NCBI GenBank assembly: GCA_001794605.1
Contig: MGKD01000013.1
Span: 13,463-77,462, forward strand
DNA length: 64,000 bases
From: Candidatus Yanofskybacteria bacterium RIFCSPHIGHO2_12_FULL_45_19b
GTDB lineage: Bacteria; Patescibacteriota; Minisyncoccia; 2-02-FULL-40-12; IGHO2-12-FULL-4
Reading direction: 5' to 3'
The notes below the pieces were generated by a model. The model was not told the origin of the DNA, did no database searches, and saw only the letters and a list, made by a program, of their open reading frames with translations. Each line of letters opens with the position of its first letter. The first letter of the stretch is position 1. This document shows, one piece after another, positions 13,493 to 51,713 of this stretch. The translations under genes and the position numbers were made by a program.

Positions 13493-13494
13493 TT

Positions 13495-21208: not shown

Positions 21209-21210
21209 GT

Positions 21211-23072: not shown

Positions 23073-23075
23073 TTT

Positions 23076-24188: not shown

Positions 24189-24201
24189 TTGATTAAATAA
24201 T

Positions 24202-25260
24202 ATGGCCGGGATTTTGATTATTACTCAAAAAGTTGACCAGGATGAGCAGTTGCTCAGTTTTTTTATTGGTTGGTTGTCTGTTTTTGCTCAACATTTTGAA
24301 CGGGTTACAGTGGGTTGTTTGCAAAAAGGAGAGTTTAGTTTGTCGAGTAATGTTTCGGTGGTTAGTTTTGGAAAGGGGGCCGGGCTTTCTAAGTGGCGCC
24401 AGCTAGTTAATTTTTACAAATTAATTATTGGCAGACAACATGAGTATCAGTCAGTATTTGTGCACATGAATCCAATTTGGGTAATTTTAGGGGGTTGGTG
24501 GTGGCGGATTAAGGGCAAAAAAATTTCCCTTTGGTATGCCCACGGTACAGTTTCTTGGAAGTTGCGACTAGCAGAGAAGTTTGCGCATGTTATTTTCACT
24601 TCAACTAGTAAGGGCTGTCGGATTAAGAGTAATAAACTGCAAATAGTGGGCCAAGGTATTGATACTGACTATTTCAAAGTTGGTTCGCAACCAGATTCCT
24701 TTTCTCATACTCCTCGGCTGGTGAGCATTGGTCGCATTGCGCCTTCTAAGGATTACGAAACCTTAATAGTGGCGGTTAAGCAGTTGGTAGCGCAGGGCCA
24801 GGCTTTGTCAGTAGAGATTGTTGGCGGAATCGGTGTGCCGGAAGACCAGGCTTATCTGGCAAAATTGCAGGCATTAGTTAGGGATAACCAGCTGGAACAA
24901 ATTTTTGTTTTTAAAGGAGCGCTACCCAATAAGACAATTTTGCCAATCCTGCAATCCGCTGATATTTTCTTGAATATGGGGCAAACTGGTAGTTTGGATA
25001 AGGCGATACTGGAGGCGATGGCTTGTGGTACGCCAGTTTTGAGTTGTAATGAGGCACTAGCGGAGGTCTTAGGGGTGGAAAACAGTCATTTGATGTATCC
25101 CAAAAAGGACCCTCAGGTTCTGGCTCAGAAAATAAGAATGATTTTACAACTTACACCAGAAGAACGACAGAAACTGTCAGCTAAGTTACGTGAAGTCGTG
25201 GTCTCAAATCATAATCTGCCGAATTTGATCAAAAAAATTAGTACAACACTAGCCACGTAA
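24202..25260 (+). CDS. glycosyltransferase family 4 (GT-B)
   Basis: LDKAILEAMACGTPVLSCNEALAEVLG. Confidence 0.7.
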   Translation: MAGILIITQKVDQDEQLLSFFIGWLSVFAQHFERVTVGCLQKGEFSLSSNVSVVSFGKGAGLSKWRQLVNFYKLIIGRQHEYQSVFVHMNPIWVILGGWWWRIKGKKISLWYAHGTVSWKLRLAEKFAHVIFTSTSKGCRIKSNKLQIVGQGIDTDYFKVGSQPDSFSHTPRLVSIGRIAPSKDYETLIVAVKQLVAQGQALSVEIVGGIGVPEDQAYLAKLQALVRDNQLEQIFVFKGALPNKTILPILQSADIFLNMGQTGSLDKAILEAMACGTPVLSCNEALAEVLGVENSHLMYPKKDPQVLAQKIRMILQLTPEERQKLSAKLREVVVSNHNLPNLIKKISTTLAT

Positions 25261-25264
25261 GACC

Positions 25265-26425
25265 ATGAAAGATAAAGGCGTCATTGTTACCGGACATCCT
25301 TATGCTTATCCTTACTACTTTAAGGTTTTTACTTTTGTGGATAAGGCAAAGTTTATTTTTGTTTTACCCAAAATCTGGCGGGCTAGGTTGGTTATAAAAT
25401 TAGAAAAGATAGCTGGCTTTAAAATTTATGGGCTAAATGCTCTATCATATGGGAGGCAGTCGTTTTTTGGTGGGCAGTTCAAGGGTTGGTTACCGGGGAT
25501 TTTGTGGCTTCTGCCCTACTTGAGGTTAAGATACCAGCCCCGTGTTTTATACTCCTGTTCCGAACCAAATTTGTTAACCACGCTGTTTAACGGGTTAGTG
25601 GCAAAGTGTTTTGGCCTACGTTACGCTATTTTTACTTGGCAGAATATTCCAGCAGAAAACAGGTTGCATGGTATTAAGTTGAGACTATCGTTATTTTTGG
25701 TTCGACTAAATTTATGGTTAGCAGATGGTGTAATTTGTGGCAATAAAAAAGCCGAGTTAATCGTAAAACAGTTAAATAAAACAATAAAAACCGCCATTTT
25801 TCCCTTAAGCGGGGTAGATGTCGAGCGGTTTAAGCCAGGTCTAGTTTCGGATTGGAAGCAAAGACTAAACTTATTTGATCACAAAACAATACTTTTTTAC
25901 GGAGCCTTAGACAAGAGAAAGGGGTTGAATATTCTGCTCGATGCCTTTAAGATAGTTCAGGATCAATCCAGCAAATTGGTGGTGGTCGGCCGTGGTCCAG
26001 AAGCGGAAAAGTTAAAACAACAAACCAGTTTATTAGGGTTGGGTGGCAGAGTGATATTTATTGACTGGATGGATAACGCAAAATTACCAGAGTTGTTGAA
26101 TACTGCAGATATTTTTGTTTACCCTAGTGTACCAGTAGGTGGCTGGGAAGAGCAATTTGGTTACGCTATGGCTGAGGCCAGTGCCTGTGCGTTGCCAGTG
26201 ATTTCTACCCAGACTGGTTCGATTGCAGAAGTGGTGTTAAATGAAAAAACCGGAATTCTGGTAGAACCCAATAACTCTACCGCTCTGGCCCTAGCTTTGG
26301 ATAAGTTGCTGGCGGACCGCGCGTTAAGAGAAGGATGGGGGCATTGCGGGCGTGATTATGTGGTGGAGAATTATAGTCACAAGAAAATTGCGGAGCAATT
26401 AACTAATTTTTTGTTCAATTTATAG
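25265..26425 (+). CDS. glycosyltransferase family 4
   Basis: EEQFGYAMAEASACALPVISTQTGSIAEVV. Confidence 0.75.
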   Translation: MKDKGVIVTGHPYAYPYYFKVFTFVDKAKFIFVLPKIWRARLVIKLEKIAGFKIYGLNALSYGRQSFFGGQFKGWLPGILWLLPYLRLRYQPRVLYSCSEPNLLTTLFNGLVAKCFGLRYAIFTWQNIPAENRLHGIKLRLSLFLVRLNLWLADGVICGNKKAELIVKQLNKTIKTAIFPLSGVDVERFKPGLVSDWKQRLNLFDHKTILFYGALDKRKGLNILLDAFKIVQDQSSKLVVVGRGPEAEKLKQQTSLLGLGGRVIFIDWMDNAKLPELLNTADIFVYPSVPVGGWEEQFGYAMAEASACALPVISTQTGSIAEVVLNEKTGILVEPNNSTALALALDKLLADRALREGWGHCGRDYVVENYSHKKIAEQLTNFLFNL

Positions 26426-26427
26426 TT

Positions 26428-26790
26428 ATGTTTTATAAGCTACTTTTGCTAATGGGGGTAGGTTTTAATGTTCTGGCGCAACTTCTTTTGAAGCAGGGAA
26501 TGGCTGGACTAGATATTATTTCTACCAACCTTACGCTGTTTGGCAAGATTAAATTACTGTTATTTAATCCTTTGTTCTGGGGAGCAATTTTGAGCTATGG
26601 AGCAGGGTTTGTAATTTATGCGGTAGTTTTATCTAAAATAAATTTAGGGGTGGCTTATCCAGTGGCCAGTGTTTTGGCAATCGTTGCTATCTATCTTTTC
26701 TCATTATTTTATTTTAATGAATCTTTAACTACCATTGGTGTAGCTGGGGTTATCTTATGTATCACTGGAGTAGCGTTATTACTAAAATAA
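26428..26790 (+). CDS. small 4-TM SMR/ArnE-like membrane protein (polyprenyl-P-sugar flippase subunit-like)
   Basis: 120 aa, four hydrophobic helices. Lies between a GT2 polyprenyl-P synthase and a GT-C gene. Confidence 0.5.
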   Translation: MFYKLLLLMGVGFNVLAQLLLKQGMAGLDIISTNLTLFGKIKLLLFNPLFWGAILSYGAGFVIYAVVLSKINLGVAYPVASVLAIVAIYLFSLFYFNESLTTIGVAGVILCITGVALLLK

Positions 26791-28460
26791 ATAGCCGGGC
26801 AAAATCGCTTATTTATCCTTTGCTAATTCTTTTAGCATTTTTTTTATTGTTAAGGTTGCCCAGCTTGCACCAGACTTACCATCAAGATGAAGTAAAGTGG
26901 GTAACGCATGCTACCACCATTGGAGATAACGCGACGGGTAAGGGTCACCCACCTTTATCTGGAATAATCTTCCCACTCTTTGGAAAAATCTTAAGTGCGC
27001 AAAATATGCGGGCGTTGCCGTTGTTGTTTGGGTTATTAAATTGTTTGTTGCTGTTCTTTTTGGTAAAACCGCGTTTTGATAAAACCACCGCTTTTTGGGT
27101 GGTAGGGGTGTATGTTTTGGTATTTTATAATGTTTTGGCCTCCTTGATGGTGGATTTAGACGGAGCGTTTCTGCCTTTTTTTGTACTGCTATTTCTCATT
27201 ACTTTTTTCCGCTGGAAAGAGTCTAGCCAACCACATCAGCGTTGGTACTGGGCGGTTAGTTTGGGGCTGACTACCTTATTAGGCTTTATGGCAAAGTTAA
27301 ATTTTATCATTCCAGTAATAGCGGTGCTGATATTTTATGTTGGCGAAACGGATGTTGTTCGATTTAATTTTAAAAATATTACTCGTCTTGTAATTACTGG
27401 ACTAGTTGGGGTCGCGACTATTTTAGCTTGTTTTCTAATTACCAAATATCTTTTTCCGGCTTTTAATTTAGGACGGGTTTTTGCACACGCCACTGATTTC
27501 TTTTCTTTTAGGGGAAGAGATTTTGGCCAGGTTATCTTTCAGACTGCTAAAGCGGTTATCTATGCTTCGCCCTTACTAATTATTCCTTTGTTTCTAATTA
27601 GCAAAGAACAGTTTAAGCAGTTAAGATTTTACTTCTGGTTTTTGGCTGTAGGATTAGTTTTTTATTATTTGTTGTTTGATTTTTCACGGGCGGCATTAGA
27701 CAAATATCTGGCTTTTATTATTGTACCGCTCTCGATTATCAGTGGGGTAGTGCTTAAAAGTTACTTTGAGGCTTGGTCGGGTTTTAATAAAAAGATAGTC
27801 TGGGGTGGTGGGCTAATATTGGTGGGGATTTTTATGACCCAGTTCTTTTCTCATTTAGTGCCACCGCTTTATCCAAAAGCGGAGTGGTTTTCTCGAGTCA
27901 CTAATTTACACTGGAACTTTCTCATGCCTTTTACGGGTGGTTCTGGTCCGCTGGGTTTTTATGTGTCTTTTTTGTTTATTGTCTTAATTTGGTTGTATAG
28001 CTTGGTTTTGTTAGTCTGGTCATTTGTTCAGAAAAATCGACGTTCAGTATTGATTGTGTTATTACTGGTGGCGGGGGTGTTATATAACCTAGTTTTTATT
28101 GAAGAGTATGCCCTGGGTAAGATTAATGGTAATGCCGCTGGGTTGCTTAATGGGGCAGTCTTTTTTATTAAAGATAATGACCAGATTGATAGGGTAATTA
28201 CCTATAACGATATCGGTGGGTTTGAGTTGGCGAGCATCGGGAAATACGAACGGCGCATCTATGTGGCGCCTAAAAATGATGCTGAACACAAACAGACGCT
28301 AAATAACTTTAAAAAGTATTATCTAGTAATTGATATCCCCAGACTGAGTATGGATAGTATTTATGCCAAATATTTTTCTACTTGCCAGGTCGTTTATTCA
28401 GATCAGTCACAACAAATCTCGGCTAAACTTTATGATTGCAAAAACGCTATGAATTTCTAG
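26757..28460 (+). CDS. GT-C family polytopic glycosyltransferase (ArnT/PMT-like)
   Basis: 567 aa, more than 10 TM helices. Genomic association with ArnE-like and GT2 genes. Confidence 0.5.
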   Translation: MYHWSSVITKINSRAKSLIYPLLILLAFFLLLRLPSLHQTYHQDEVKWVTHATTIGDNATGKGHPPLSGIIFPLFGKILSAQNMRALPLLFGLLNCLLLFFLVKPRFDKTTAFWVVGVYVLVFYNVLASLMVDLDGAFLPFFVLLFLITFFRWKESSQPHQRWYWAVSLGLTTLLGFMAKLNFIIPVIAVLIFYVGETDVVRFNFKNITRLVITGLVGVATILACFLITKYLFPAFNLGRVFAHATDFFSFRGRDFGQVIFQTAKAVIYASPLLIIPLFLISKEQFKQLRFYFWFLAVGLVFYYLLFDFSRAALDKYLAFIIVPLSIISGVVLKSYFEAWSGFNKKIVWGGGLILVGIFMTQFFSHLVPPLYPKAEWFSRVTNLHWNFLMPFTGGSGPLGFYVSFLFIVLIWLYSLVLLVWSFVQKNRRSVLIVLLLVAGVLYNLVFIEEYALGKINGNAAGLLNGAVFFIKDNDQIDRVITYNDIGGFELASIGKYERRIYVAPKNDAEHKQTLNNFKKYYLVIDIPRLSMDSIYAKYFSTCQVVYSDQSQQISAKLYDCKNAMNF

Positions 28461-29770
28461 GCCCACACCTTATGAAGCATTTGTCAAAAATATTGGATCA
28501 TACTGTCGACTTTTATGACCGTAGTGGTTATTGGAGAAAACGTAATTGGTTTTATCACCAATCACTGGACGAATTTTTGCGTTTTTTAATTCCACCAGAA
28601 AAAAAATCACTTAAGCTTAGCATTACAGAACTAAACGACTTTTCCGTTGAGCAAAATAAAATTGACTATTTTGTGTTGACTGACTTGCTGGGTTATTTGC
28701 GTGATATTGAAATCTTTTTCAGAGAACTACATGTCAGTGGCGATGACGATACCCGTCTGGTAATAACCCAATATAATAAATTATGGGAGCCACTTTTGCG
28801 TTTGGGAGCGGCACTTAAATTACGGATGCCCTATGCTAACCAAAGCTGGGTTTCGGTTGCTGACATTGAGAATTTTTTATATCTGGCTGGATACGAAGTG
28901 GTTAAAAAAGGTGCCAAATTGTTGTTGCCGATTTATATCCCACTACTTTCGTGGTTGTGTAATAAATACCTGGTAAATATTTTTCCTTTCAATAAATTAG
29001 CCCTAGTTAACTATGTGATTGCGCGTAAGTTGGAGAAAAAGTCGGTTGATGCCTCGGTCAGTGTTATTGTGCCAGCGCGCAATGAGGCCGGTACGATACA
29101 AAAGATAGTAAAGGAAATACCACTAATGGGTAGGGAAACCGAAGTCATCTTTGTGGAGGGGCACTCTACTGATAATACGTTAGAAGAAATCAAGCGGGCG
29201 GTAGCCGAATATCGTGGTGATAAGAAGGTCAAATATGTTGTGCAGAGTGGTAAAGGCAAAGGGGATGCGGTAAGGAAAGGGTTTGCCATGGCGACGGGAG
29301 ATATTTTGATGATTTATGACGCCGATATGACCGTACCACCAGATGAGCTAAGCAAGTTTTATTCAGCCCTAATTGGGGGTCGAGGAGATTTTATTAATGG
29401 TTCGCGCTTGGTTTATCCAATGGAAAAGCTGTCCATGCGCACCTTAAACTTTGTCGGCAATAAATTTTTTAGTTTAGCCTTTTCTTGGTTACTAGGACAA
29501 CGCATTAAAGATACCCTTTGTGGTACTAAAGTCCTATGGAAAAAAGATTATCTGGCGATTGAGCGGGGTCGACAGTGGTTTGGCGAGTTTGATCCATTTG
29601 GTGACTTCGACTTATTATTTGGTGCGGCCAAGCTTAATCTTAAAATTATTGATTTGCCGGTGCATTATAGGGAGCGCACCTATGGCACTACCAATATTGA
29701 TCGCTGGCGCCATGGTTGGCTGTTATTAAAAATGGTGGTTTTTGCTATGCGTAAGATTAAATTTATTTAG
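28436..29770 (+). CDS. two-domain protein: N-terminal unknown domain plus C-terminal GT2 polyprenyl-P glycosyltransferase
   Basis: VSVIVPARNEAGTI...MIYDADMTVPPDEL. Confidence 0.7.
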   Translation: MQKRYEFLGPHLMKHLSKILDHTVDFYDRSGYWRKRNWFYHQSLDEFLRFLIPPEKKSLKLSITELNDFSVEQNKIDYFVLTDLLGYLRDIEIFFRELHVSGDDDTRLVITQYNKLWEPLLRLGAALKLRMPYANQSWVSVADIENFLYLAGYEVVKKGAKLLLPIYIPLLSWLCNKYLVNIFPFNKLALVNYVIARKLEKKSVDASVSVIVPARNEAGTIQKIVKEIPLMGRETEVIFVEGHSTDNTLEEIKRAVAEYRGDKKVKYVVQSGKGKGDAVRKGFAMATGDILMIYDADMTVPPDELSKFYSALIGGRGDFINGSRLVYPMEKLSMRTLNFVGNKFFSLAFSWLLGQRIKDTLCGTKVLWKKDYLAIERGRQWFGEFDPFGDFDLLFGAAKLNLKIIDLPVHYRERTYGTTNIDRWRHGWLLLKMVVFAMRKIKFI

Positions 29771-30441
29771 TGATGGATACGCACCAACATTTTAACGATA
29801 TTGCTAATGAATATGACAAATGGAAGGAGAAAAACTCTTATTACTACGATGCCATCAAAACTTTGTTGCGCTCCAAAATTCCTAGTCAGGCGCGGGTGTT
29901 AGAAGTCGGTTGTGGTACCGGCGATTTGTTGGCAGTGCTATCGCCTTCCGTTGGATTGGGGATTGATATCAGCGAGGTGATGGTGACCTTGGCTCAAAAA
30001 AAGTACGCTGACCGCTCTGAACTATCTTTTCGGGCGTTAGATATTACCACGCTAACAAAACCACTGCCGTATGACTATATTTTTTTGGTGGATGTCTTGG
30101 AACACATTGAAAACTTGCCGAAATTTTTGGAAGGTCTAAAACAGGTTGTTTTGCCTAACGCAAAAATCATTATTACGTTGGCTAACCCGCTCTGGGAGAC
30201 GGTTTTAATGTTGGCAGAGAAATTAGGCATGAAAATGCCAGAAGGTCCACACTGGCGCTTAAGCATCAAGGAGAACGAGCGGTTGTTTAAACAGCAGGGT
30301 TGGGAGATAGCAGAGCGCGGCTATCGATTGCTAGTGCCCAAAAAAATACCAGGGGCAGATTTTCTTAATGAAAAGTTCCATAAGTCTAAGCTCTTAGCCC
30401 CCTTGGGCTTTATTGTTTACTGGGAACTGATCAAGGCATGA
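29770..30441 (+). CDS. class I SAM-dependent methyltransferase
   Basis: VLEVGCGTGDLL motif I. Confidence 0.7.
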   Translation: MMDTHQHFNDIANEYDKWKEKNSYYYDAIKTLLRSKIPSQARVLEVGCGTGDLLAVLSPSVGLGIDISEVMVTLAQKKYADRSELSFRALDITTLTKPLPYDYIFLVDVLEHIENLPKFLEGLKQVVLPNAKIIITLANPLWETVLMLAEKLGMKMPEGPHWRLSIKENERLFKQQGWEIAERGYRLLVPKKIPGADFLNEKFHKSKLLAPLGFIVYWELIKA

Positions 30442-30503: not shown

Positions 30504-32048
30504 TTAGACAAGGCGACGTTTCGCGCCCTCCCAACGCACATCCCCAAATTGAGGCTGGCCGTGCTGGGCCTCCCAAACTGTCTGATACTCACGAATCCGC
30601 TTAATATCACGGGCCACCATTAACTCACGCAGACCGAGCAACTCGACCGCGTTAAAGTTCTCACAGATGACGGCAGTAATCTTAGTCGCGTCTCCCAAGT
30701 CCGTCAGGAAAGCGTCCAGACTGCCATCATACTGTGCCAAGATGCGGTCTTTGTACTTGTTGAACCACTCACTGCCTGGATAAGGAGTAGCAAAGAAGGG
30801 CTTAACCTGAATACCCATCTCCTCCCATGCCTCTACGCAGTCAATCAACGAGTCAAACCAGTCATCCGGAAAGCCCATGATCTGGTTGGGGATTGGTCGG
30901 ATACCGGCTTCCATGGTTACGCGAAGTGAGCGCTTATTGGTTTCAGGCGTGGAACCTTTGCCAACGTTTTTTAATACGCGCTTGGAAAAGGATTCATAGC
31001 CATAAACCAACTGGGAACAGCCCGCCCCATGCATTAGCCGGAGAATTTCCGGATTAGCATGAGCGGCATGACTGGTGCCACCCCAGTGTACGCCATGGCA
31101 GTGTTCTGGATCATGCGGCACGCCATCGCGCACACATTGCGGCTGAAGGCCCGCCTCAATCCAGAGCCGGCAGATTTCCGGTAGCCAGGTATTATGCGTG
31201 GCCGCGTTCATTGCTAACAGATTTTCGTCAAAGAAAATAACGAAATCTGTGCCATACTTATCGCGCATATGTTTGACCATCTGCACGATATATTTAGGGC
31301 TATGCACACGGTTCTCGCGGTTGTAGGTAAAGACCACATCGGCGGCCGGGTTGTTGGGATCCTGATATTGCAGGTCTCCGGCTAGGCCAAGGTGAAAGCA
31401 AAAACGACAGATGAACGGACAGCCGAAACTGCCGTTGACATCCATACGTTTCTTGGCCGAGAAGGCCTCTTCACTGTAGATCAGTGCGGAGTTACGGAGA
31501 TAGATGTCCATCGGGAGCATATCCCAGGCGGGATAAGGCAGGACATCGAGGTTGGGAATTAAGGGGCGAGGTGGAGTAAGGCAGTTGTTTCCAGTGCGAT
31601 CTCGGTAGATTACCCCGAGCGTTTTGGAAAAATCCAAGTCGTCAAGGGCTATCTTTTCTAAAATCTCCGGAAAGGTAACAAAACCTTCACCCACTACCCC
31701 TAAGTCCACTTCTGAGATCAGTCGCATCATATCCTGCGGTATGCTGGTTAAAATACCTCCACCTAAAACTCTTAATGAGCGGGGAGAGTACTGTTTCGCA
31801 TACTGCATAATTTTTTTGGTGTAACCGTAGGTAGTGGTGATACCACCAACCCCGACTACATCCCAGTTGTCGGCTTGCATGACGGCTTTCAAGTCGCCGT
31901 CATCCGGCCGCCAGGCGTTGGCATCGAGAATTTGCACTAGATGCCCAGCCTGGTCAGCCAGAGCGGCCAACTGGGAAATGCCATAGGGGATATGACGGGG
32001 ATCATCCTCTTCCCGTACGACGGGGTTTATCAACAGTACTCTTGCCAC
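30504..32048 (-). CDS. B12-binding radical SAM enzyme (class B radical SAM methyltransferase-like)
   Basis: N-terminal cobalamin-binding fold. CPFICRFC (CxxxCxxC) motif. Confidence 0.8.
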   Translation of the reverse strand: MARVLLINPVVREEDDPRHIPYGISQLAALADQAGHLVQILDANAWRPDDGDLKAVMQADNWDVVGVGGITTTYGYTKKIMQYAKQYSPRSLRVLGGGILTSIPQDMMRLISEVDLGVVGEGFVTFPEILEKIALDDLDFSKTLGVIYRDRTGNNCLTPPRPLIPNLDVLPYPAWDMLPMDIYLRNSALIYSEEAFSAKKRMDVNGSFGCPFICRFCFHLGLAGDLQYQDPNNPAADVVFTYNRENRVHSPKYIVQMVKHMRDKYGTDFVIFFDENLLAMNAATHNTWLPEICRLWIEAGLQPQCVRDGVPHDPEHCHGVHWGGTSHAAHANPEILRLMHGAGCSQLVYGYESFSKRVLKNVGKGSTPETNKRSLRVTMEAGIRPIPNQIMGFPDDWFDSLIDCVEAWEEMGIQVKPFFATPYPGSEWFNKYKDRILAQYDGSLDAFLTDLGDATKITAVICENFNAVELLGLRELMVARDIKRIREYQTVWEAQHGQPQFGDVRWEGAKRRLV

Positions 32049-32050
32049 GA

Positions 32051-33073
32051 CTAGCCTCCGTTCTGTCCAAATTTGTTTAGAAATTCAGACAGAGAAATGA
32101 AGTTTATGTTGGCACCAAAAAGAGTGCCTCCTTCGGTGCAGTTATAAGTAGTGCACGGGGCCTGCTTGGCCAGTTCCAGGATAATCTCCCGGAACCAGTA
32201 GTAGGTTGGATCCGTGTACCAAGTCTCGTTGAGGTACGGGTTTTGAATCTCGATGTAGGCTTCGGCGACCCGTTCGCCGAATAAATCACGCAGTTCGTAA
32301 AAGTACTGCGTATTGAGGAAGGGAGTGCCGGGGGCGTATCCGAGATCAAATCCGGCTAAGGCTACCTGCCGATGTCCCAATACCGCCCAGGAAAAAATGT
32401 AGGCAGCGGTGCCGACATTGCCACCGGTGTTCATACAAGGAATACCGCCGGTTAGACCTACTAGCTCGCGGGTGACAGTTTGGGTGGGATCATCTGGGTC
32501 ATCGTAAAATTGATTCCACCAGTAGATATCCATACCCGATTCCACACAGCGTTTGGTGACGGTAGGATCAACGCTGGTGCAGAGGATGGCTTTAATTTTA
32601 GAGCCGTGCTGGTTTACTAGCTCGGTTAACTCCTGATTATAGCGCATCTCGTCTTCCCAATACTTAGGGTCAAAGTCCTGTCGCCGGAAGTAATCATCCG
32701 GTGGTCGGCTAGCCAGGTCAGGATCGCCGAACCAACGCACGATACGATACGGGTTGGGGTCTAAACAGACCATGTATTGGGGGATAACACCATGGCGCAG
32801 GCAATAACCAAAGCTGCCATCGGCGGTGATGATATCGCCAGTGAAGTTGGTTTGGGCGATGCGGGCGGCGGTATGCTTACGATGCAGGCTCGGTCCACCT
32901 ACCACTACGATGGCGGCACTGTCTGGCCCATGCTTTGGAATCAACAAGTCATCAATTGTTTTTCGGTAATGCGGACGATTCAATTTGGCATTGCGGAGGC
33001 CCACGGCGGTAACTTTGTCCGCCGTGAGCTTGCTGACGAACTGGGCGATTTGCTTACCTAGGTTATTCTCCAT
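32051..33073 (-). CDS. DUF115/MptE-like protein, Maf-like putative nonulosonic-acid glycosyltransferase
   Basis: VVVGGPSL, ITADGSF, PQYMVCLDP and GGNVGTAAYIFSWAVLGHRQVALAGFDLGY motifs typical of DUF115/Maf. Confidence 0.6.
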   Translation of the reverse strand: MENNLGKQIAQFVSKLTADKVTAVGLRNAKLNRPHYRKTIDDLLIPKHGPDSAAIVVVGGPSLHRKHTAARIAQTNFTGDIITADGSFGYCLRHGVIPQYMVCLDPNPYRIVRWFGDPDLASRPPDDYFRRQDFDPKYWEDEMRYNQELTELVNQHGSKIKAILCTSVDPTVTKRCVESGMDIYWWNQFYDDPDDPTQTVTRELVGLTGGIPCMNTGGNVGTAAYIFSWAVLGHRQVALAGFDLGYAPGTPFLNTQYFYELRDLFGERVAEAYIEIQNPYLNETWYTDPTYYWFREIILELAKQAPCTTYNCTEGGTLFGANINFISLSEFLNKFGQNGG

Positions 33074-33257
33074 CTTGTTTTTCCTTTTTCGGTGGTCGCC
33101 AAACCGGGTTGGCCTTCTTGATATAACAAGCGCTCCCGCCTAAGGCTCGGGCGGCGGCGGTCTGCATTTTTTCAGTTAGAGTCGTCTCCTCATCTTTCGT
33201 TACCCGTACAGGGTTAGCAACAGTGTAGTTTCCCTTTAGGATACTTTTCTTCGACAT
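33063..33257 (-). CDS. small hypothetical protein
   Basis: 64-aa ORF from an internal Met. Overlaps the DUF115 start. Confidence 0.25.
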   Translation of the reverse strand: MSKKSILKGNYTVANPVRVTKDEETTLTEKMQTAAARALGGSACYIKKANPVWRPPKKEKQDGE

Positions 33258-33379
33258 AACAAACCTCCGTTGTTTGGTTTTTAAGCTTCCTTCCAGATCT
33301 GTTCGAGACGATAATAACAAATTAAATTGTTCAATTCAACTGATTGACACCTTTTGACACTTTCTGATACCATTAAAGT

Positions 33380-33647: not shown

Positions 33648-34472
33648 ATGGAAACTACCACCACAATTATTAAACCGCAGAAAAAGTTTTCCTTTTTAGA
33701 TTTAAAGGAGATCTGGGACCATAAAGGGTTGCTCTACTTTTTTACTTGGCGTGACCTCAAAATCCGCTACAAACAGACATTAGTAGGAATAGGCTGGGCA
33801 TTATTCCAACCCTTTGTCACAATGATTGTCTTTAGTATTTTCTTTGGCAATTTTGCTAAAATTCCTTCCGACGGAATTCCCTATCCGATTTTTGTTTATT
33901 CTGGACTTTTGTTTTGGCAATTTTTTTCTGCTTCCCTGGCCCAGGCCAGTAGTTCTCTGGTGAGCAATCAGAATATTATTACTCGAGTTTACTTTCCTCG
34001 TTTGATTTTGCCTTTTTATTCTACGCTTACTAATTTAATTGATTTTGGCGTGGCCTCGCTGATGTTGGTGGTGTTGATGTTTTATTATGGTTTTGCTCCG
34101 GAGTGGTTATTAATCTTATTAATTCCAGTATTAATTTTGATCACCTTTATGTTTGCAGTCGGGCTAGGCCTCTTCTTAGCCTCTCTTAATGTCAAATATC
34201 GAGACATTAAGTTTATCTTACCCTTCTTTATTCAGATGTTGTTATTTGTAACCCCGGTAATTTATCCACCCAGTATTTTGGGAAAGTATTCATGGTTGTT
34301 AGCTTTTAACCCGATGACGGGCGTGATTAAAACCGCCCGCACGATTTTGCTTGGCGGGCAAACGATTAACTGGCTACAGTTGGAAATTTCTAGTTTGGCC
34401 GCCGTAATTATTTTTGTTGTAGGGGTTGTCTATTTTAAAAAGACAGAAAAGTATTTTGCTGATCTTATCTAA
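33648..34472 (+). CDS. ABC-2 type polysaccharide export permease (Wzm/TagG-like)
   Basis: Six TM helices, ABC-2 signature region. Confidence 0.8.
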   Translation: METTTTIIKPQKKFSFLDLKEIWDHKGLLYFFTWRDLKIRYKQTLVGIGWALFQPFVTMIVFSIFFGNFAKIPSDGIPYPIFVYSGLLFWQFFSASLAQASSSLVSNQNIITRVYFPRLILPFYSTLTNLIDFGVASLMLVVLMFYYGFAPEWLLILLIPVLILITFMFAVGLGLFLASLNVKYRDIKFILPFFIQMLLFVTPVIYPPSILGKYSWLLAFNPMTGVIKTARTILLGGQTINWLQLEISSLAAVIIFVVGVVYFKKTEKYFADLI

Positions 34473-34478
34473 TTAGGT

Positions 34479-35735
34479 ATGGAAACTGTCATCCAAGTAA
34501 AAAACATCTCAAAGCGATATAAAATTACTCACTGGCAAGGTGGGTATCTAACCCTGCGTGATGTTATAAGTAATACTTTCAAACACCCCCTAAGGTTTTT
34601 TAAGAATAAAATGAGTAATATAATTTCGGGGGAGAGTCGAGAGGATTTTTGGGCCTTACGTGGTCTGAGTTTTTCGGTGCAAAAAGGAGAGGTGATTGGT
34701 ATTATTGGTGCTAATGGTGCTGGCAAGTCCACCCTACTTAAAATTCTAACTAAAATAACTCCACCCTCAGAAGGAGAGATAGTTTTGCGCGGTAAAGTTT
34801 CTTCTTTGTTGGAGGTGGGAACTGGTTTCCACCCCGAACTGACTGGTCGGGAAAATATTTTTTTCTATGGTGCGATCCTCGGAATGAAAAAGAAGGAGAT
34901 TGTTGATAAATTTGATCGCATTGTTGAATTTGCTGGTATGCAGAAGTTTTTGGATACACCAGTCAAAAAATATTCTTCCGGTATGTATGTACGCCTGGCT
35001 TTTTCAGTAGCCGCACACATGGAGCCAGATATTTTATTGATTGATGAGGTTTTAGCTGTGGGGGATGCTGAATTTCAAAAAAAGTGTTTAGAAAAAATGA
35101 AGAGTGTTGCGCGTGACGATAATCGCACCATTTTATTTATTAGCCATAACATGAATGCGGTCCGCGGGCTATGCAACCGTTGCGTGTTATTGGAAAAAGG
35201 GGAAATAAAAATGGTGGGTGATACCGAAGCGGTGATTAGTGCTTATCTTAAGCACCGGGAGGGTGAGTTTGGTAAAGCTGTTTTTGAGTACCCGACTGAC
35301 CAAAGCAAGCCTATCAACATTAAAAAAATTAAAATTCTTGGGGCAGATGGTACGGTTACGGCGCACCTAGAAGCGGGTATGCCATTTTCAATTGAGTTGG
35401 GGTATTCTGTCAACCAAGCGGTCGCAGCCTCACGAATATTTATTTCCTGTGTTAATGAGGAGGGGGTGGAGTTGTTTGTTTCTTGTGATACAGATAAACA
35501 GCCAGAGCTTTTTACCAACCGAGAGCCCGGTAACTACCGAGCGACTTTTCAATTTCCTGCTACCAATGAAATTTCACTGGCGGCGGGCGACTACTTTTTA
35601 AGAGTGCGTGTTACTTCTGATCCACAGGCCGATCACCTGATTCCATTGACCATAGAGAATTTAGCAAAAAGATTCGTGGAATTACCTGGTGTAATGGCAC
35701 TTGCCTCTAAGTGGCACTTAGAAAAAATCGAATAA
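34479..35735 (+). CDS. polysaccharide ABC exporter ATPase (Wzt/TagH-like) with C-terminal carbohydrate-binding extension
   Basis: Walker A GANGAGKST, signature YSSGMYVRLAF, Walker B LLIDEV. About 160-aa C-terminal beta-rich extension. Confidence 0.85.
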   Translation: METVIQVKNISKRYKITHWQGGYLTLRDVISNTFKHPLRFFKNKMSNIISGESREDFWALRGLSFSVQKGEVIGIIGANGAGKSTLLKILTKITPPSEGEIVLRGKVSSLLEVGTGFHPELTGRENIFFYGAILGMKKKEIVDKFDRIVEFAGMQKFLDTPVKKYSSGMYVRLAFSVAAHMEPDILLIDEVLAVGDAEFQKKCLEKMKSVARDDNRTILFISHNMNAVRGLCNRCVLLEKGEIKMVGDTEAVISAYLKHREGEFGKAVFEYPTDQSKPINIKKIKILGADGTVTAHLEAGMPFSIELGYSVNQAVAASRIFISCVNEEGVELFVSCDTDKQPELFTNREPGNYRATFQFPATNEISLAAGDYFLRVRVTSDPQADHLIPLTIENLAKRFVELPGVMALASKWHLEKIE

Positions 35736-35752
35736 ATTTTTTTCTTGTTAAT

Positions 35753-36958
35753 ATGAAAAAATACTTAAAATTACCGCCCGGAGTTAATCCTAATAAGAAT
35801 AATATTTTTCCAGTTAACCTACCCTATTATTTACTTACCCATAGCGCACACCTTGCTGATGATAAAGAGCAGAAGTGGGTGGTTTTTTGGGGAGTGCCAT
35901 TCCGACAACTACCGACTATCTATGCTGATGAAAAAGAGTTCATTCGGCAGGCCAACCTTTGTCTAGATTATGTACGACGAGGGTGCGTAGGTTGTAAACT
36001 ATTCTACAAAACTCATCCCAATGAAACCGACGAACAAACCTCACTTGATTTAACGGGGTTTCAAATTTTGTCACAGAAAGAAGTGGCGGAATTTTTTGTC
36101 TTGAAAAACTTTCACAAAATAAGACAGGTTTTTTCTACTTACTCTAGCGCGGCGATGACTGCTTATAAATTGGGTCTCGACGCTCACATTTTTCTGCCCT
36201 TGGTGGAACCGTCTTTGACCGAGCAGAATCGCAATGGCAACCGCGAATATTATAAGCATATGCCACCAGAATTCTTTATTGACAAGTTTAGTGCTTCTCC
36301 TAAAACCAATAAACTCAATATTCCTCAACAGCCCGATGCGGTTTTAAGGGAAAATCTTTTGGTGTTGCTAAAAGACCGCCCGGCTCAGACTATTTGGTTT
36401 ATTTTGGGAGATCCGGGTTCACTGACCTCGGTTATTTTACTGGCACGATTTATAAAAGAACTTGCTCCGCAGGCTGCTATCGGTTTAATCATTGAACGAC
36501 ATCATCGTTGGCAGGTAATGAATTTGGCAGAGGTAAAAACTTTTTTTGATCATATGCTGGTTTATCCGCGCTGGCTACCATCGTTGCGCCCAAATAAAAT
36601 TTGGGCGCAACTTAAAACTGCCTGGGCCTTACGTCGAGCACCGATTGCTCCGAACGATATAATCTTTGGTTTTAACTATACGGCCTTTGTGGAAAACTGT
36701 CTGCTCACCTACTTCCCCAGCAACCTAAAAGTGGCTTTTGTAAAAAAAGAAACCCTGGAGTTTTGTTATGGCTCAAAAGAAAAAGCCTTTTTTCAAAACT
36801 ACTTTTCACGCATTGGCCATCGTTTTTATGCCAGAGTAATCCAGCCTATTTTGGGACTGTACCCCACGGTTTTTTTAGAGGATCCGGTGCGAGTGGCTAA
36901 CTTTGACCGCTATCTTATGCCAATTAACGACCTGTATGATCAGGTGTATGTATATTAG
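35753..36958 (+). CDS. hypothetical protein with HP motif; paralog of 51714-52886; candidate CMP-sugar (sialyl/Kdo-type) glycosyltransferase
   Basis: Shares CLDY, THPNE/PHPDE, FDLDL.GF, LGL.AH.F and FVENC/FIENC blocks with the 51714 protein. Confidence 0.35.
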   Translation: MKKYLKLPPGVNPNKNNIFPVNLPYYLLTHSAHLADDKEQKWVVFWGVPFRQLPTIYADEKEFIRQANLCLDYVRRGCVGCKLFYKTHPNETDEQTSLDLTGFQILSQKEVAEFFVLKNFHKIRQVFSTYSSAAMTAYKLGLDAHIFLPLVEPSLTEQNRNGNREYYKHMPPEFFIDKFSASPKTNKLNIPQQPDAVLRENLLVLLKDRPAQTIWFILGDPGSLTSVILLARFIKELAPQAAIGLIIERHHRWQVMNLAEVKTFFDHMLVYPRWLPSLRPNKIWAQLKTAWALRRAPIAPNDIIFGFNYTAFVENCLLTYFPSNLKVAFVKKETLEFCYGSKEKAFFQNYFSRIGHRFYARVIQPILGLYPTVFLEDPVRVANFDRYLMPINDLYDQVYVY

Positions 36959-36961
36959 CCC

Positions 36962-37720
36962 ATGGATAATATACGCATCATTCCCCGCTTAGATATCAAG
37001 GGCCCCAATGTGGTTAAGGGGATTTTTAACGAGGGTTTGCGCATAGTTGGATCACCACAGGAACTGGCTACGCGTTATTACAAAGCCGGTGCTGACGAGA
37101 TAATCTATATGGATATAGTAGCCAGTCTATACCAAAGAAATTTAGATTTTGAACTTTTGAAATCAGTGGCTAACCATATTTTTATTCCACTTACGGTAGG
37201 GGGCGGTATTCGTTCAATCGGAGATATTAATAACGCACTTCGGGCGGGGGCCGATAAGGTGGCAATTAATACTTATGCCGTAAAAAATCCAAATTTTATT
37301 AAAGAAGCGGCACAGAAGTTTGGTAGTCAGTGTATAGTGCTTTCGGTGGAGGCTAAACAGAAGTCGGTTGACCTATGGGAAGCCTATATAGATGGAGGTA
37401 GAGAGAAAACTGGTATCGACGCAGTAGCTTGGATAAAGCGAGCTATTAAACTGGGCGTGGGTGAGGTGATGGTAAGCTCAATTGACAAAGACGGGTTGCG
37501 TGGTGGCTTTGCGACTGAGCTTTGTCAGGCTGTAACTGCTTTTGCATCGGTACCAGTAATTGTACACGGCGGGGCTGGTAAATTAGAGTCCGTAGCGGAG
37601 GTTCTAAAGCTTGCCAATCCTGATGCAGTGGCGATTGCATCAGCCTTTCACTACCAAGATTACTCAATAAAAAAGTTGAAAAACTTTTTACGGAGTAAAG
37701 AGTTTCCTATTCGACAATAA
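36962..37720 (+). CDS. HisF-like cyclase subunit (WbuZ-type, glycan amidotransferase module)
   Basis: IIPRLDIKGPNVVKG; (beta/alpha)8 HisF pattern. Confidence 0.8.
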   Translation: MDNIRIIPRLDIKGPNVVKGIFNEGLRIVGSPQELATRYYKAGADEIIYMDIVASLYQRNLDFELLKSVANHIFIPLTVGGGIRSIGDINNALRAGADKVAINTYAVKNPNFIKEAAQKFGSQCIVLSVEAKQKSVDLWEAYIDGGREKTGIDAVAWIKRAIKLGVGEVMVSSIDKDGLRGGFATELCQAVTAFASVPVIVHGGAGKLESVAEVLKLANPDAVAIASAFHYQDYSIKKLKNFLRSKEFPIRQ

Positions 37721-37721
37721 G

Positions 37722-38357
37722 ATGAAAAAGAAAACAAAACTAGCGATATTGGATTATGGCGTGGGCAATCTCTATAGTATTACCCGAGCGGTGGCTAATT
37801 TTTGTGATGATTTTATTATTACCGATGATCCGGAAGTAGTAGCCAGGGTTGACCGGTTAATTCTACCCGGTGTAGGGTCATTTGCCGCTGGCATGGCCGG
37901 TATACGCGTACGCAGTTTAGTAGATTCGATTAAACAGTTTGTGCAAACCGGTCGTCCGATTCTGGGTATTTGTTTGGGTGCTCAGTTGCTAATGACTAGG
38001 GGTTTCGAATTTGGTAATTTTACTGGTTTGGATATTATTCCAGGCGAGGTGGTAAAGTTGTCTGGTGTAGGTAAGGGAGTTAAAATCCCGCATATTGGTT
38101 GGGGGCAGATTAAGCCGAGCAGTTCCGGTAAAAAGGGAGTGTTGGCCGGAGTGTCCTCTGGCGCCTATGTATATTTTGTTCATTCTTTTATTATGCAGCC
38201 AAAGCGCCAAGAAGATGCTTTGACCACCACCATCTATGGTGAAAGCAGGTTCTGTTCCGCTATCCGGCACGAGAATGTCTGTGGACTACAGTTCCATCCT
38301 GAAAAAAGCGGTGCGGTAGGCATGCAGATAATTAATAATTTTATTAAACAAACCTAG
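37722..38357 (+). CDS. HisH-like glutamine amidotransferase subunit (WbuY-type)
   Basis: LAILDYGVGNLYSI, GICLGAQLL (catalytic Cys), HPEKS. Confidence 0.8.
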   Translation: MKKKTKLAILDYGVGNLYSITRAVANFCDDFIITDDPEVVARVDRLILPGVGSFAAGMAGIRVRSLVDSIKQFVQTGRPILGICLGAQLLMTRGFEFGNFTGLDIIPGEVVKLSGVGKGVKIPHIGWGQIKPSSSGKKGVLAGVSSGAYVYFVHSFIMQPKRQEDALTTTIYGESRFCSAIRHENVCGLQFHPEKSGAVGMQIINNFIKQT

Positions 38358-39575
38358 ATGACTAAAATTACTGCCAAATACGGCTTGCCGGCTAAGGTTA
38401 GTTTTTGTCGAAAGTGCGTAATGTCCAATCAAAAACCCAGTTCTACGGTGGAGTTTAAATATGCCTCAGGCGATAAGAAAAAAACCATAGCTTTTGACGC
38501 GGCCGGCGTATGTGATGCCTGCCACTTCGCCGAATATAAAGAAACGCAGATCGATTGGAAAAAGCGAGAAAAGCAATTGCGGGAGCTCTGCGATCGTTAC
38601 CGACGTACAGACGGCAGTTATGATTGTATTGTCCCGGGTAGTGGAGGTAAAGACAGTGCTTTTGCCTCCCATGTCTTAAAGTATAAGTATGACATGCATC
38701 CATTGACTGTTACCTGGGCACCACACCTTTATACCGACATTGGTTGGCGGAATTTTACCGCCTGGATTCATCAAGGAGGGTTTGATAATGTTTTGTTTAC
38801 TCCCAATGGGCGGGTGCACCGTCTGCTAACCAGGTTGGCTTTTAAGAACCTACTTCATCCTTTTCAGCCATTTATCTTTGGCCAGAAAAATATTGGTGCC
38901 AAATTTGCTTTAAAATTTAATGTTCCTCTGGTATTTTATGGTGAAAATCAAGCAGAATATGGCAATGGTAAATCGCCAAAAGAAAATGATATTGCCCAGG
39001 TAAGGCCAGAGTTTTTTTCCAGCGACGAAAGTATCGACACTATCATACTAGGGGGTGTCCCCGTTAAGAAATTGTTGGCCAAGGAGGGCTTGTCACGCAA
39101 CGATCTTGACCCTTATCTACCAGTATCTGCACGCGCCCTCAAAAAACAAAAAGTTCAAGTACACTACCTTGCGCATTATCTTAAGTGGGATCCGCAGGAA
39201 AACTTTTACTATGCCACTAAGCATACAGGCTTTCAGGCCAACACTGAACGTACCGAGGGTAGTTACTCAAAGTATAGCAGTATTGATGATAAGACTGACC
39301 CCTTCCACTACTATACAACACTAATTAAGTTTGGTATTGGGCGTGCTACCTATGATGCTGCGCAAGAGATTCGCAGTCGAAAAATCACTCGGGCAGAAGG
39401 AGTAGCCTTGGTTCGACGTTACGACCAGGAATTTCCAGAACGAAGCTTTAAGGATTTCTTGGAATATATTGATATTAGCAAAGAGGAATTTTGGCGGATA
39501 ATTGATCGAGCCCGCTCGCCTCACATTTGGAAAAAGGAAAAAGGACGGTGGGTATTAAGACATCCAATAGAATAA
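38358..39575 (+). CDS. N-acetyl sugar amidotransferase (WbuX/WbpG-like PP-loop ATPase)
   Basis: PP-loop CIVPGSGGKDSAF. N-terminal Cys-rich region. Confidence 0.7.
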   Translation: MTKITAKYGLPAKVSFCRKCVMSNQKPSSTVEFKYASGDKKKTIAFDAAGVCDACHFAEYKETQIDWKKREKQLRELCDRYRRTDGSYDCIVPGSGGKDSAFASHVLKYKYDMHPLTVTWAPHLYTDIGWRNFTAWIHQGGFDNVLFTPNGRVHRLLTRLAFKNLLHPFQPFIFGQKNIGAKFALKFNVPLVFYGENQAEYGNGKSPKENDIAQVRPEFFSSDESIDTIILGGVPVKKLLAKEGLSRNDLDPYLPVSARALKKQKVQVHYLAHYLKWDPQENFYYATKHTGFQANTERTEGSYSKYSSIDDKTDPFHYYTTLIKFGIGRATYDAAQEIRSRKITRAEGVALVRRYDQEFPERSFKDFLEYIDISKEEFWRIIDRARSPHIWKKEKGRWVLRHPIE

Positions 39576-39578
39576 AAT

Positions 39579-40559
39579 ATGCGCGATATATTTAAAGATT
39601 ATAAAGTTTTTTCAATTAATCCGAGTAAATTACGTAGTCCGGGATTTTTTAGAAATATGTTGGAATACCGCACAGCAGTGATGCGGCGCTACCGTTCCGC
39701 ACTTAAATCTCGGACAGAGTTTTCTTGTCCGTTATGCGGGGCAACTAAGGGAAGGGAGTTTTTAAAATATAAAAATTACCTTTTGTTGGAGTGTTCTCGT
39801 TGTGGGCTAGTCTCCCCTAATATTGATTTTTCTAAGGTGGACGGGCGTGAGCTATATGACGACCCGGCTTGTATTAAAGACACTACACGCGAGGTATTGG
39901 ACAATTATCAATACCGTAAGCAAACCTATGCTCCGGAGAGATTACAATATATTTTAGAAAAAACTGGTTTACGGTCACGCGCACTGCGTCTGTTAGATGT
40001 TGGTTGTGGCCCGGGTTATTTTTTGAGTCATCTGCACGATAAAAAGATACGCTATAAGGGGTTAGAGCTGGCCAAGTTTTTGGTAGAAATTTGTCAAAAG
40101 CAGGGGCTTAATGTTGCGATGAACGACGTTGCCCTTGAGCCAGATAAAGCCTATAACGTAATTACGCTTTTTGACGTATTGGAGCACGTGGCGGACCCAG
40201 TCTCTTTTCTTAAGATCCTAAAGAGTAAGTTGGTCAAGGGTGGGTATATAATAGCCTACATACCAAATATTCACTCCTTGGCCTATCAACTGATGGGTCA
40301 ATGGCAAAATACCCTGGTACCGTTTCAGCATTTTTGTTTTTATGATCCGGCCTCGCTAAAGTTGCTTGCTCGCAAAAGTGGTCTTACTGTCAATTCGCTA
40401 GACTATTATGGGTTGGATCTGCTTGATTACTTTTATATGAAACAGGATCAGGACGGAGTTAACTATCATCAGAAATTGAGCGAAGCTATTCCATTGTTGC
40501 AGGCAGTTATTGATAAGCAGAAACTGAGTAACCATATGCGGGTGGTTTTTAAGAAATAA
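39579..40559 (+). CDS. class I SAM-dependent methyltransferase with N-terminal Zn-ribbon
   Basis: CPLCG...CSRCG; LDVGCGPGYF. Confidence 0.7.
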   Translation: MRDIFKDYKVFSINPSKLRSPGFFRNMLEYRTAVMRRYRSALKSRTEFSCPLCGATKGREFLKYKNYLLLECSRCGLVSPNIDFSKVDGRELYDDPACIKDTTREVLDNYQYRKQTYAPERLQYILEKTGLRSRALRLLDVGCGPGYFLSHLHDKKIRYKGLELAKFLVEICQKQGLNVAMNDVALEPDKAYNVITLFDVLEHVADPVSFLKILKSKLVKGGYIIAYIPNIHSLAYQLMGQWQNTLVPFQHFCFYDPASLKLLARKSGLTVNSLDYYGLDLLDYFYMKQDQDGVNYHQKLSEAIPLLQAVIDKQKLSNHMRVVFKK

Positions 40560-40563
40560 TTTA

Positions 40564-41577: not shown

Positions 41578-41586
41578 ACAATATTT

Positions 41587-43781: not shown

Positions 43782-43785
43782 GAGA

Positions 43786-45226: not shown

Positions 45227-45227
45227 A

Positions 45228-46544: not shown

Positions 46545-46561
46545 AAGACTAAACAATAACT

Positions 46562-47584: not shown

Positions 47585-47590
47585 TATAAA

Positions 47591-51711: not shown

Positions 51712-51713
51712 AC

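Follow-up and report, generated by a model that had tools for sequence, protein, structure and literature searches.

A three-gene cassette coupling a short Maf-like DUF115 protein, a small partner protein and a cobalamin-dependent radical SAM enzyme, linked to nonulosonic acid genes in diverse bacteria

What does a short DUF115-family protein do beside a cobalamin-dependent radical SAM (S-adenosylmethionine) enzyme in the midst of the glycan genes of Candidatus Yanofskybacteria bacterium RIFCSPHIGHO2_12_FULL_45_19b? The two lie within a 64,000-nucleotide (nt) stretch of contig MGKD01000013.1 (positions 13,463 to 77,462, hereafter the window), close to genes for nonulosonic acids, the sialic-acid-like sugars that decorate flagella, S-layers, capsules and lipopolysaccharide (LPS) and that shape phage and immune recognition. 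How such sugars are tailored and transferred is little understood outside a few pathogens, and it is on this that the locus bears. The interval 30504-33320 of the window holds three minus-strand open reading frames (ORFs), encoding in transcription order a small protein, the DUF115 protein and the radical SAM enzyme; the cassette thus couples a Maf-fold enzyme and a cobalamin-dependent radical SAM enzyme with a new family of small proteins, which forms at least 224 clusters when grouped at 50% identity. We hold it very probable that the three genes function together and are tied to nonulosonic acid (NulO) metabolism, and the cassette probably tailors or installs a modified sugar.

The first cassette gene (33063..33257, minus strand) encodes the small partner protein of 64 amino acids (aa); its ATG, at 33257, follows a GGAGG ribosome-binding site at 33268-33264, and its stop codon lies inside the DUF115 gene, overlapping the start of the latter by 11 nt. 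The second (32051..33073, minus) encodes the short Maf-like DUF115/MptE-like protein (340 aa, PF01973), a predicted transferase-fold enzyme binding cytidine monophosphate (CMP)-nonulosonate. After a gap of only 2 nt comes the GTG-initiated gene of the cobalamin-dependent (class B) radical SAM enzyme (30504..32048, minus; 514 aa, PF02310 plus PF04055), a probable C-methyltransferase. An earlier interpretation made from the letters alone (the sequence-only reading) had described the latter two genes as divergently paired, which is wrong: they are tandem and co-directional, with DUF115 upstream, and it is the cassette operon as a whole that diverges from the plus-strand HTH_17, wzm and wzt genes. 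Having overlooked the conserved 64-aa ORF, its two-gene view was also incomplete. A promoter-like site upstream of the small ORF (TTGAAT-17-TATTAT, 9/12 matches; 33311..33339, minus) stands back to back with one for the HTH_17 gene (33344-33373, plus); a promoter and terminator scan found no more promoter-like sites in the region than shuffled sequence would lead one to expect, so these sites are weak evidence. No credible match to a riboswitch, cobalamin-type included, came from an Rfam scan of 29.5-34.5 kb.

Is this arrangement peculiar to one genome? A homologue scan over one genome per GTDB species gave a match in 167 species, and among the best 80 of these 167, which we kept, the trio recurs in 80 species-representative genomes from around ten phyla: carriers include Yanofskybacteria, Elusimicrobia, Methylomirabilota/Rokubacteria, Dehalococcoidia, Nitrospira, Planctomycetes, Omnitrophota, Acidobacteria and Alpha- and Gammaproteobacteria. 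The window DUF115 protein itself has homologues in more than 1000 clusters at 45-72% identity. Our locus counts rest on up to 88 related loci (cited by number, L001 onwards) from the 80-genome set and later additions, of which 42 are well flanked, with at least 8 kb of sequence on each side of the cassette. A radical SAM gene is present in all 42 well-flanked loci, and in 71 of 81 loci it starts between 50 nt before and 150 nt after the point where the DUF115 match ends; conversely, when three radical SAM homologues on long contigs were taken as the starting point, a small ORF and an MptE-like gene lay upstream in each. A homologous small ORF sits directly upstream of DUF115 in 81/85 loci.

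The cassette is also linked to NulO genes. Within 10 kb of the cassette, well-flanked loci carry a CMP-NulO synthetase (40/42), NeuB (37/42) and a NeuC-type epimerase (34/42), and in 37 loci the synthetase lies within 300 nt. Typical gene orders differ between lineages: aminotransferase, CMP-synthetase, small protein, DUF115, radical SAM, NeuB and NeuC in Nitrospira and Dehalococcoidales; NeuB, small protein, DUF115, radical SAM and CMP-synthetase in Gammaproteobacteria. One apparent archaeal occurrence (L050, labelled as a Nitrosotalea sp. metagenome-assembled genome) was rejected: the locus has 69% G+C and is 86-88% identical in DNA to the Rokubacteria/Limnocylindria loci L030 and L046, and is almost certainly a mis-binned bacterial contig. 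Among the genuine carriers is a cultured organism, Paramagnetospirillum caucaseum SO-1, which offers an experimental starting point; its cassette proteins are WP_008616211.1 (radical SAM), WP_008616213.1 (DUF115) and WP_161625016.1 (small protein). Its cassette is followed (L084, 6242-14234) by genes for a nucleoside diphosphate (NDP)-sugar 4,6-dehydratase, an HldE-like kinase/nucleotidyltransferase, an epimerase/dehydratase, an APH-type kinase, a split transketolase and a further radical SAM protein, a set that, from its sequences, looks like a higher-carbon sugar pathway. In L088 (544-2601 and 14690-17361) the cassette shares its nonulosonate cluster with three other radical SAM genes, two of them encoding B12-binding proteins (685 and 555 aa) and one a SPASM-domain protein.

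The cassette is also unusually well conserved. With the window proteins as reference and across non-CPR loci (CPR, candidate phyla radiation), median identity is 58% for the radical SAM enzyme and 48% for DUF115, against 38% for NeuB, 34-35% for the CMP-synthetases, 31-36% for the NeuC-type epimerases and 37% for the aminotransferase, some of which sugar genes may be paralogues rather than orthologues. Taken locus by locus, DUF115 exceeds both NeuB and CMP-synthetase in 44 of 46 cases and the radical SAM enzyme does so in all 46. Proteins that meet lineage-specific macromolecular acceptors would not be expected to be more conserved than enzymes of small molecules, and this suggests that the cassette has a conserved substrate and conserved partners. 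Flagellin is encoded within 10 kb in just 4/88 loci, so that no general linkage to flagellin is seen, and tblastn found none in the 64-kb window, in keeping with the absence of flagellar genes reported by the sequence-only reading. One of the four, L076, has a flagellar glycosylation island that holds both a canonical 840-aa Maf (PF01973 over its full length, E 2e-42) and the cassette; canonical-type DUF115 genes are likewise found alongside it in L070, L080, L079, L044 and seven Nitrospira loci. Given this co-occurrence, the cassette DUF115 is not simply "the" transferase of these systems.

What, then, is the DUF115 protein? Its family assignment has been borne out (PF01973, E 8.7e-12, 45.6 bits against a gathering cut-off of 34.6), with an alignment that covers only aa 37-108, or positions 11-80 of the 171 in the model. 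The motifs on which the assignment had first been based are all present in the translation (GPSL at 60-63, ADGS at 83-86, GGNVG at 217-221, LAGFDLGY at 239-246) and lie in invariant or near-invariant columns of the family. Residues 214-317 match the NCBIfam model of PseD (Maf) locally, at E 3.4e-9 and 35.8 bits, where the full-length cut-off is 670. In fold comparison the best match is the Maf glycosyltransferase of Magnetospirillum magneticum (5mu5; score 22.2, 242 residues), to which identity is 16% over the aligned residues, followed by the archaeal pterin pyrophosphokinase MptE (8sd5; 14.8, 192), SteA (9hmy; 11.4, 176), a GT42 sialyltransferase (2p56; 8.2, 156) and the GT29 sialyltransferase ST8SiaIII (5bo8; 8.1, 175). 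The Maf-like call is therefore structurally sound, the fold matched being that of the central domain of a solved Maf. Sequence searches reach less far: with a profile of the whole DUF115 family, the PDB yields only MptE, through the N-terminal motif (8sd5, E 6e-5, residues 48-105), and with the C-terminal half it yields no matches.

Nevertheless, this is not a Maf of the known kind. Compared with Maf of M. magneticum AMB-1 (5MU5) or PseD/PseE/Maf4 of Campylobacter jejuni, the cassette protein lacks the N- and C-terminal flagellin-binding domains, has 340 aa rather than 440-840 and so does not have the full-length Maf architecture; it is always paired with a B12-dependent radical SAM enzyme and a small protein, and its loci for the most part lack flagellin. 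Used as a tblastn query, the 840-aa canonical Maf of L076 found no cassette DUF115 at E 1e-3. Judged by sequence, the cassette DUF115 proteins form a short subfamily of their own. The window protein has neither signal peptide nor membrane segment. Three of its cysteines, C91, C213 and C312, are conserved in 99-100% of 81 sequences and a fourth, C176, in 80%; they could form a metal or Fe-S site.

The small partner belongs to no family on record: Pfam and NCBIfam searches of the 64-aa protein gave no match, and a search of 5.8 billion proteins returned 2673 clusters, all of them named "hypothetical protein" and devoid of Pfam domains; at 50% identity the family has 224 representatives. Its members share an M..LKGN[YF] motif, a variable linker, a helix with FE..AL..LGGS, then [IV][AC]FV.K..W and a variable tail, and the Ser, Gly-Asn and Lys residues are invariant. 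Three independent natural proteins (P0007, P0009 and P0011) fuse the small protein in frame to the N-terminus of DUF115, and no other fusion partner was seen among the best 150 of the 224 representatives; natural fusions are good evidence that the small protein works physically with DUF115, and, together with the start/stop overlap and the 81/85 adjacency, these sequence features argue for a physical partnership. The layout of a ribosomally synthesised and post-translationally modified peptide (RiPP) precursor, with its conserved leader, variable core and protease, is not found here: it is the N-terminus and the middle that are conserved, the tail at the C-terminus varies and is missing in some loci (L005, L028), and the neighbourhood holds no conserved protease. 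In L019 (7334-9823) and L086 (5833-7737) the gene next upstream of the small ORF encodes a fused ABC (ATP-binding cassette) exporter (ABC_membrane plus ABC_tran). At the same position, seven other loci give weak Wzt-type tblastn matches (25-29% identity), which suggests that they share the arrangement; the exporter could be a lipid-linked glycan flippase or a peptide exporter.

The identity of the third protein as a B12-dependent radical SAM enzyme likewise stands (PF02310, E 1.6e-14; PF04055, E 9.9e-13). Its CPFICRFC motif supplies C210/C214/C217, invariant in 28 sequences, as are C344 and H312, with C305, C317 and H321 near-invariant. It is by domain content a cobalamin-dependent class B enzyme, and characterised members of this class are mostly C-methyltransferases. 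No NCBIfam equivalog applies: the best score, to BchE, is 92.5 bits against a cut-off of 481, ApyD gives 77 against 750 (E 8e-22), and HpnJ, PhpK, HpnR and others score lower still, so that the protein falls in none of the characterised subfamilies (BchE, HpnJ/R, PhpK, KedN5, ApyD, BzaD, the MCR methylases and others). Among solved structures, a profile search ranks the iterative C-methyltransferases CysS and TokK first, followed by TsrM and OxsB; no match is stronger than E 1e-6, and those to CysS, TokK and TsrM range from 1e-6 to 1e-4. With CysS, TokK and TsrM the cassette enzyme shares the N-terminal B12-binding domain and the radical SAM core with CxxxCxxC, yet the similarity is remote, and the cassette family carries conserved Cys and His residues beyond those of class B methyltransferases. 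Within the same class, GenK acts on a sugar carbon and Fom3 on a cytidylylated substrate. As a prior expectation for the cassette enzyme, C-methylation is probable.

How might three such proteins work together? The reading that we tentatively favour, at rather less than an even chance, is of a module acting on a CMP-activated legionaminic-type sugar and combining its transfer to a conserved acceptor with radical C-methylation. The three co-transcribed genes would serve one CMP-activated 5,7-diamino (legionaminic-type) nonulosonic acid: the DUF115 protein, with its Maf/sialyltransferase-like fold, would bind the CMP-sugar; the 64-aa protein would be its obligate partner, translationally coupled to it and fused in some organisms; the radical SAM enzyme would modify the same sugar by radical chemistry, most likely C-methylating an unactivated carbon; and the pair of DUF115 and small protein would then transfer the sugar to a conserved acceptor. 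In the Yanofskybacteria genome the product may feed a glycan assembled in the cytoplasm and exported by Wzm/Wzt, and not flagellin. This reading draws on the constancy of the trio, the fusions, the proximity of CMP-NulO genes, the high conservation and the class of the radical SAM enzyme. A Wzm/Wzt pair and many glycosyltransferases in the window support it too, as does a precedent from Shewanella oneidensis, whose short Maf-2, devoid of tetratricopeptide repeats (TPRs), needs the small cis-encoded partner GlfM for flagellin glycosylation, whereas its long Maf-1 manages without GlfM (Unay, Kint and Viollier, bioRxiv 10.1101/2023.12.03.569772). The likeness to this tripartite system lies in a short Maf with a small protein encoded in cis, possibly with a long Maf alongside, as here in L076. 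There are differences too: by its description GlfM is a four-helix bundle with conserved residues to position 80, whereas the cassette protein, of about 60 aa, is predicted to have a single helix and short strands and has none of the GlfM residues that are listed, and the GlfM/Maf-2 system is without a radical SAM enzyme.

Several observations weigh against this favoured reading. It is hard to see why DUF115, as the final transferase, should be so conserved between organisms whose cell envelopes differ greatly, and in at least 12 loci a canonical Maf-type gene is also present that could carry out the transfer. In L043 and L087, the 9-10 kb around the cassette are free of NulO genes, and L087 has sulfation genes instead. 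The radical SAM enzyme resembles no characterised family closely, and the class B repertoire includes reactions other than methylation. Finally, an AlphaFold2 (AF2) model of the natural fusion P0009 gives its small domain a confidence (pLDDT) of 33-75, with only three sequences covering that part of the alignment.

Perhaps, instead, the cassette only tailors the sugar. The radical SAM enzyme would then C-methylate the CMP-nonulosonate, possibly iteratively, with DUF115 and the small protein holding or presenting the CMP-sugar and other enzymes (canonical Maf or other glycosyltransferases) transferring it. We regard this as a serious possibility, albeit a doubtful one. In its favour are the usual position of the cassette between CMP-synthetase and NeuB inside biosynthetic operons, its being more conserved than either, and the canonical 840-aa Maf beside it in L076 with Maf-type genes in at least 11 other loci; the closest solved radical SAM structures are those of iterative methylases, and Fom3 is a precedent for a B12-dependent enzyme methylating a cytidylylated substrate. 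A product could even be proposed. Legionaminic/pseudaminic acid (Leg/Pse)-like ulosonic acids with an extended, apparently ten-carbon (C10) backbone occur as CMP-sugars in Magnetospirillum gryphiswaldense (Kleikamp et al., PMC8157484; SugarBase preprint 10.64898/2026.04.20.719630), where they form a CH2 ladder at m/z 679.198, 693.214 and 707.230 and have no proposed biosynthesis (PMC8157484; bioRxiv 10.64898/2026.04.20.719630). The cassette is present in a cultured relative of that organism, P. caucaseum SO-1, and could make such C10 "higher-carbon" CMP-ulosonic acids; a B12-dependent radical SAM C-methylase within NulO clusters is an obvious candidate for this step, and we offer it as a lead, not a result. 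Two points speak against tailoring alone: the HldE-like and transketolase genes of the P. caucaseum locus and the heptose genes of L086 would allow a route to C10 from heptose and phosphoenolpyruvate (PEP) that requires no radical SAM enzyme, and no glycosyltransferase-fold protein is known to us that acts only as a presenter of substrate.

The explanation given by the sequence-only reading fares less well. It took the DUF115 protein for a Maf-type enzyme that O-glycosylates non-flagellar surface or S-layer proteins at Ser/Thr, the radical SAM partner possibly methylating the sugar. Its premises have partly held: the linkage to CMP-nonulosonate extends over 80 genomes, the setting is mostly non-flagellar, and the radical SAM enzyme belongs to a class that is mostly C-methyltransferases. 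Moreover, every DUF115 glycosyltransferase studied biochemically (Maf) modifies protein Ser/Thr, the fold match is to Maf, and the window is without flagellin and has surface-like genes of the Big_5 and dockerin kinds. The part concerning the acceptor is not supported. The protein is of a distinct, short subfamily, and its constant company of radical SAM enzyme and small protein, its conservation and its co-existence with canonical Maf-type genes point to a conserved substrate or partner. An enzyme with no signal peptide and no membrane segment would stay in the cytoplasm, whereas surface proteins cross the membrane unfolded; the acceptor-binding domains found at the C-terminus of Maf are missing; conservation over the full length across phyla with unrelated surface proteins misfits lineage-specific acceptors; and the window offers a lipid-linked route instead, through its glycosyltransferases, Wzm/Wzt and GT-C/PMT-like enzymes. 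On balance we judge direct modification of surface proteins unlikely. Non-flagellar transfer of Pse/Leg does have a precedent in the O-glycan of Tannerella S-layer glycoproteins (Tomek et al., PMC5420450). Tannerella forsythia uses CMP-Pse/CMP-Leg on a surface glycoconjugate assembled prior to export, an end use like that suggested by the Wzm/Wzt and glycosyltransferase genes of the window, but neither a radical SAM enzyme nor a small-protein partner is reported for that system.

Could the small protein itself be the acceptor? DUF115 would then O-glycosylate its invariant Ser (LGGS), and the radical SAM enzyme would modify the tethered sugar or the peptide, giving a small glycoprotein, a primer or a carrier-bound intermediate, RiPP-like or glycogenin-like. 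As the sole conserved, co-encoded protein able to explain a conserved acceptor, it has some claim to this role: its Ser, Gly-Asn and Lys are invariant, Maf enzymes glycosylate Ser/Thr, the weak NCBIfam matches of the radical SAM enzyme include RiPP maturases (ApyD, E 8e-22), and in Rokubacteria-type loci and L086 the small ORF directly follows a gene for a fused ABC exporter. We nonetheless think it improbable, as the protein has neither a leader/core layout (its N-terminus and middle being what is conserved, and its tail what varies or is lost) nor a protease conserved nearby nor a signal peptide; its sequence conservation across phyla is far above that usual for RiPP precursors, and fusion to the enzyme suits a subunit better than a released product. 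A narrower version, in which the 60-aa protein is a dedicated carrier or primer that receives the nonulosonic acid on its invariant Ser (glycogenin-like, with self-glycosylation in the fusions) and holds it while the radical SAM enzyme C-methylates the tethered sugar, is a long shot. If true, modified ulosonic acids, possibly with ten carbons, would be made on a carrier protein, and small cytoplasmic sialo-glycoproteins of a class not seen before would be spread across many phyla.

That DUF115 is an MptE-type pyrophosphokinase, for pterin or another substrate and unrelated to sugar transfer, is suggested by the Pfam family name and by the best sequence-level PDB match (MptE, 8sd5), but we consider it very improbable, seeing that archaeal MptE, a 6-hydroxymethyl-7,8-dihydropterin pyrophosphokinase, belongs to a pterin context, while the cassette protein has an extra, Maf-like C-terminal half that matches PseD, no folate or methanopterin genes were found in the window or the annotated loci, and the context is glycan/nonulosonate biosynthesis in nearly all 88 loci.

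Whichever of these explanations proves right, the combination appears to be new: a literature search found no paper linking DUF115/Maf with radical SAM, or nonulosonic or legionaminic acids with cobalamin-dependent radical SAM enzymes, and the three-gene cassette is not described in any paper found, the Maf/nonulosonate theme itself being known. For CPR bacteria, to which Yanofskybacteria belong, the cassette suggests a cobalamin-dependent step in the building of surface glycans.

The rest of the window is, in effect, one large glycan locus around the cassette. On the plus strand next to it are genes for Wzm (ABC-2 permease, PF01061, E 2.7e-16) and Wzt (ABC ATPase, PF00005, with the carbohydrate-binding domain Wzt_C, PF14524) at 33648..35735, which by their domains constitute an ABC-transporter-dependent glycan export system. 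These are followed by the nonulosonic acid biosynthesis block (35711..52886, plus), so that the pathway which the sequence-only reading had placed downstream is indeed there, at about 35.7-52.9 kb. It comprises HisF/HisH-like proteins, a WbuX amidotransferase, two methyltransferases, a NeuB-type synthase, two NeuC-type hydrolysing (2-)epimerases, two PseF-like CMP-NulO synthetases, an aminotransferase, a GFO oxidoreductase, a formyltransferase, a PseC/LegC-like aminotransferase, a PseB-like dehydratase and two paralogues without a known family. The NeuC-type epimerases are what we take, from general pathway knowledge, to indicate a legionaminic-type 5,7-diamino sugar. That these hydrolysing epimerases and the tandem PseF-like synthetases both come in twos (42615-45226 and 47591-48742, plus) suggests two products, either distinct nonulosonic acids or distinct activated forms. 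The two paralogues (35711-36958, plus, 415 aa; 51714-52886, plus, 390 aa) are 32% identical, have no Pfam family and bracket the block; one has a weak match to TIGR04396, "surface carbohydrate biosynthesis protein", and a homologue adjoins the PseB-like gene in the other CPR loci L001, L006 and L007. They are alternative candidates, on this sequence evidence, for the nonulosonate transferase. Inside the block, too, is an aminotransferase resembling glutamate-1-semialdehyde aminomutase (45228-46544, plus; NCBIfam PRK06209, 601 bits against a cut-off of 486).

On the other side of the cassette lies a glycosyltransferase block (20060..30441, plus) with five members of glycosyltransferase family 4 (GT4), a GT2, a small-multidrug-resistance-like protein, a PMT_2 GT-C enzyme (26757-28460, plus), a GT2-methyltransferase fusion and a methyltransferase. 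Further upstream, TPR-containing proteins are encoded at 11117-15150 (plus), one with a TMTC/PMT-like DUF1736 segment; these and the PMT_2 protein could be extracytoplasmic glycosyl- or oligosaccharyltransferases linking the exported glycan to proteins or to the wall. A 1217-aa protein without a Pfam domain (7393-11046, plus), near Big_5 (17-1804) and dockerin (1813-2469) proteins, is a possible surface protein, as are these; they are the only surface-like genes seen in the window, for which the sequence-only reading had spoken of abundant S-layer and surface proteins, and no S-layer domain was seen. At 56281-57372 (plus) there is a gene of the GT9 (heptosyltransferase) family, worth noting in that CPR genomes are expected to lack LPS, and a 56%-identical homologue lies directly upstream of the cassette in another Yanofskybacteria locus (L001, 6628-7707, minus). 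Lastly, the plus-strand glycan cluster is interrupted by an insertion sequence (IS)-type integrase (rve/HTH, 19085-19978) and a GT4 gene (17928-19088), both on the minus strand, and the cassette has a G+C content of 51.8% where the flanking blocks have 41.7-41.9%; this excess of ten points, together with the integrase, hints at a mosaic acquisition of the locus.

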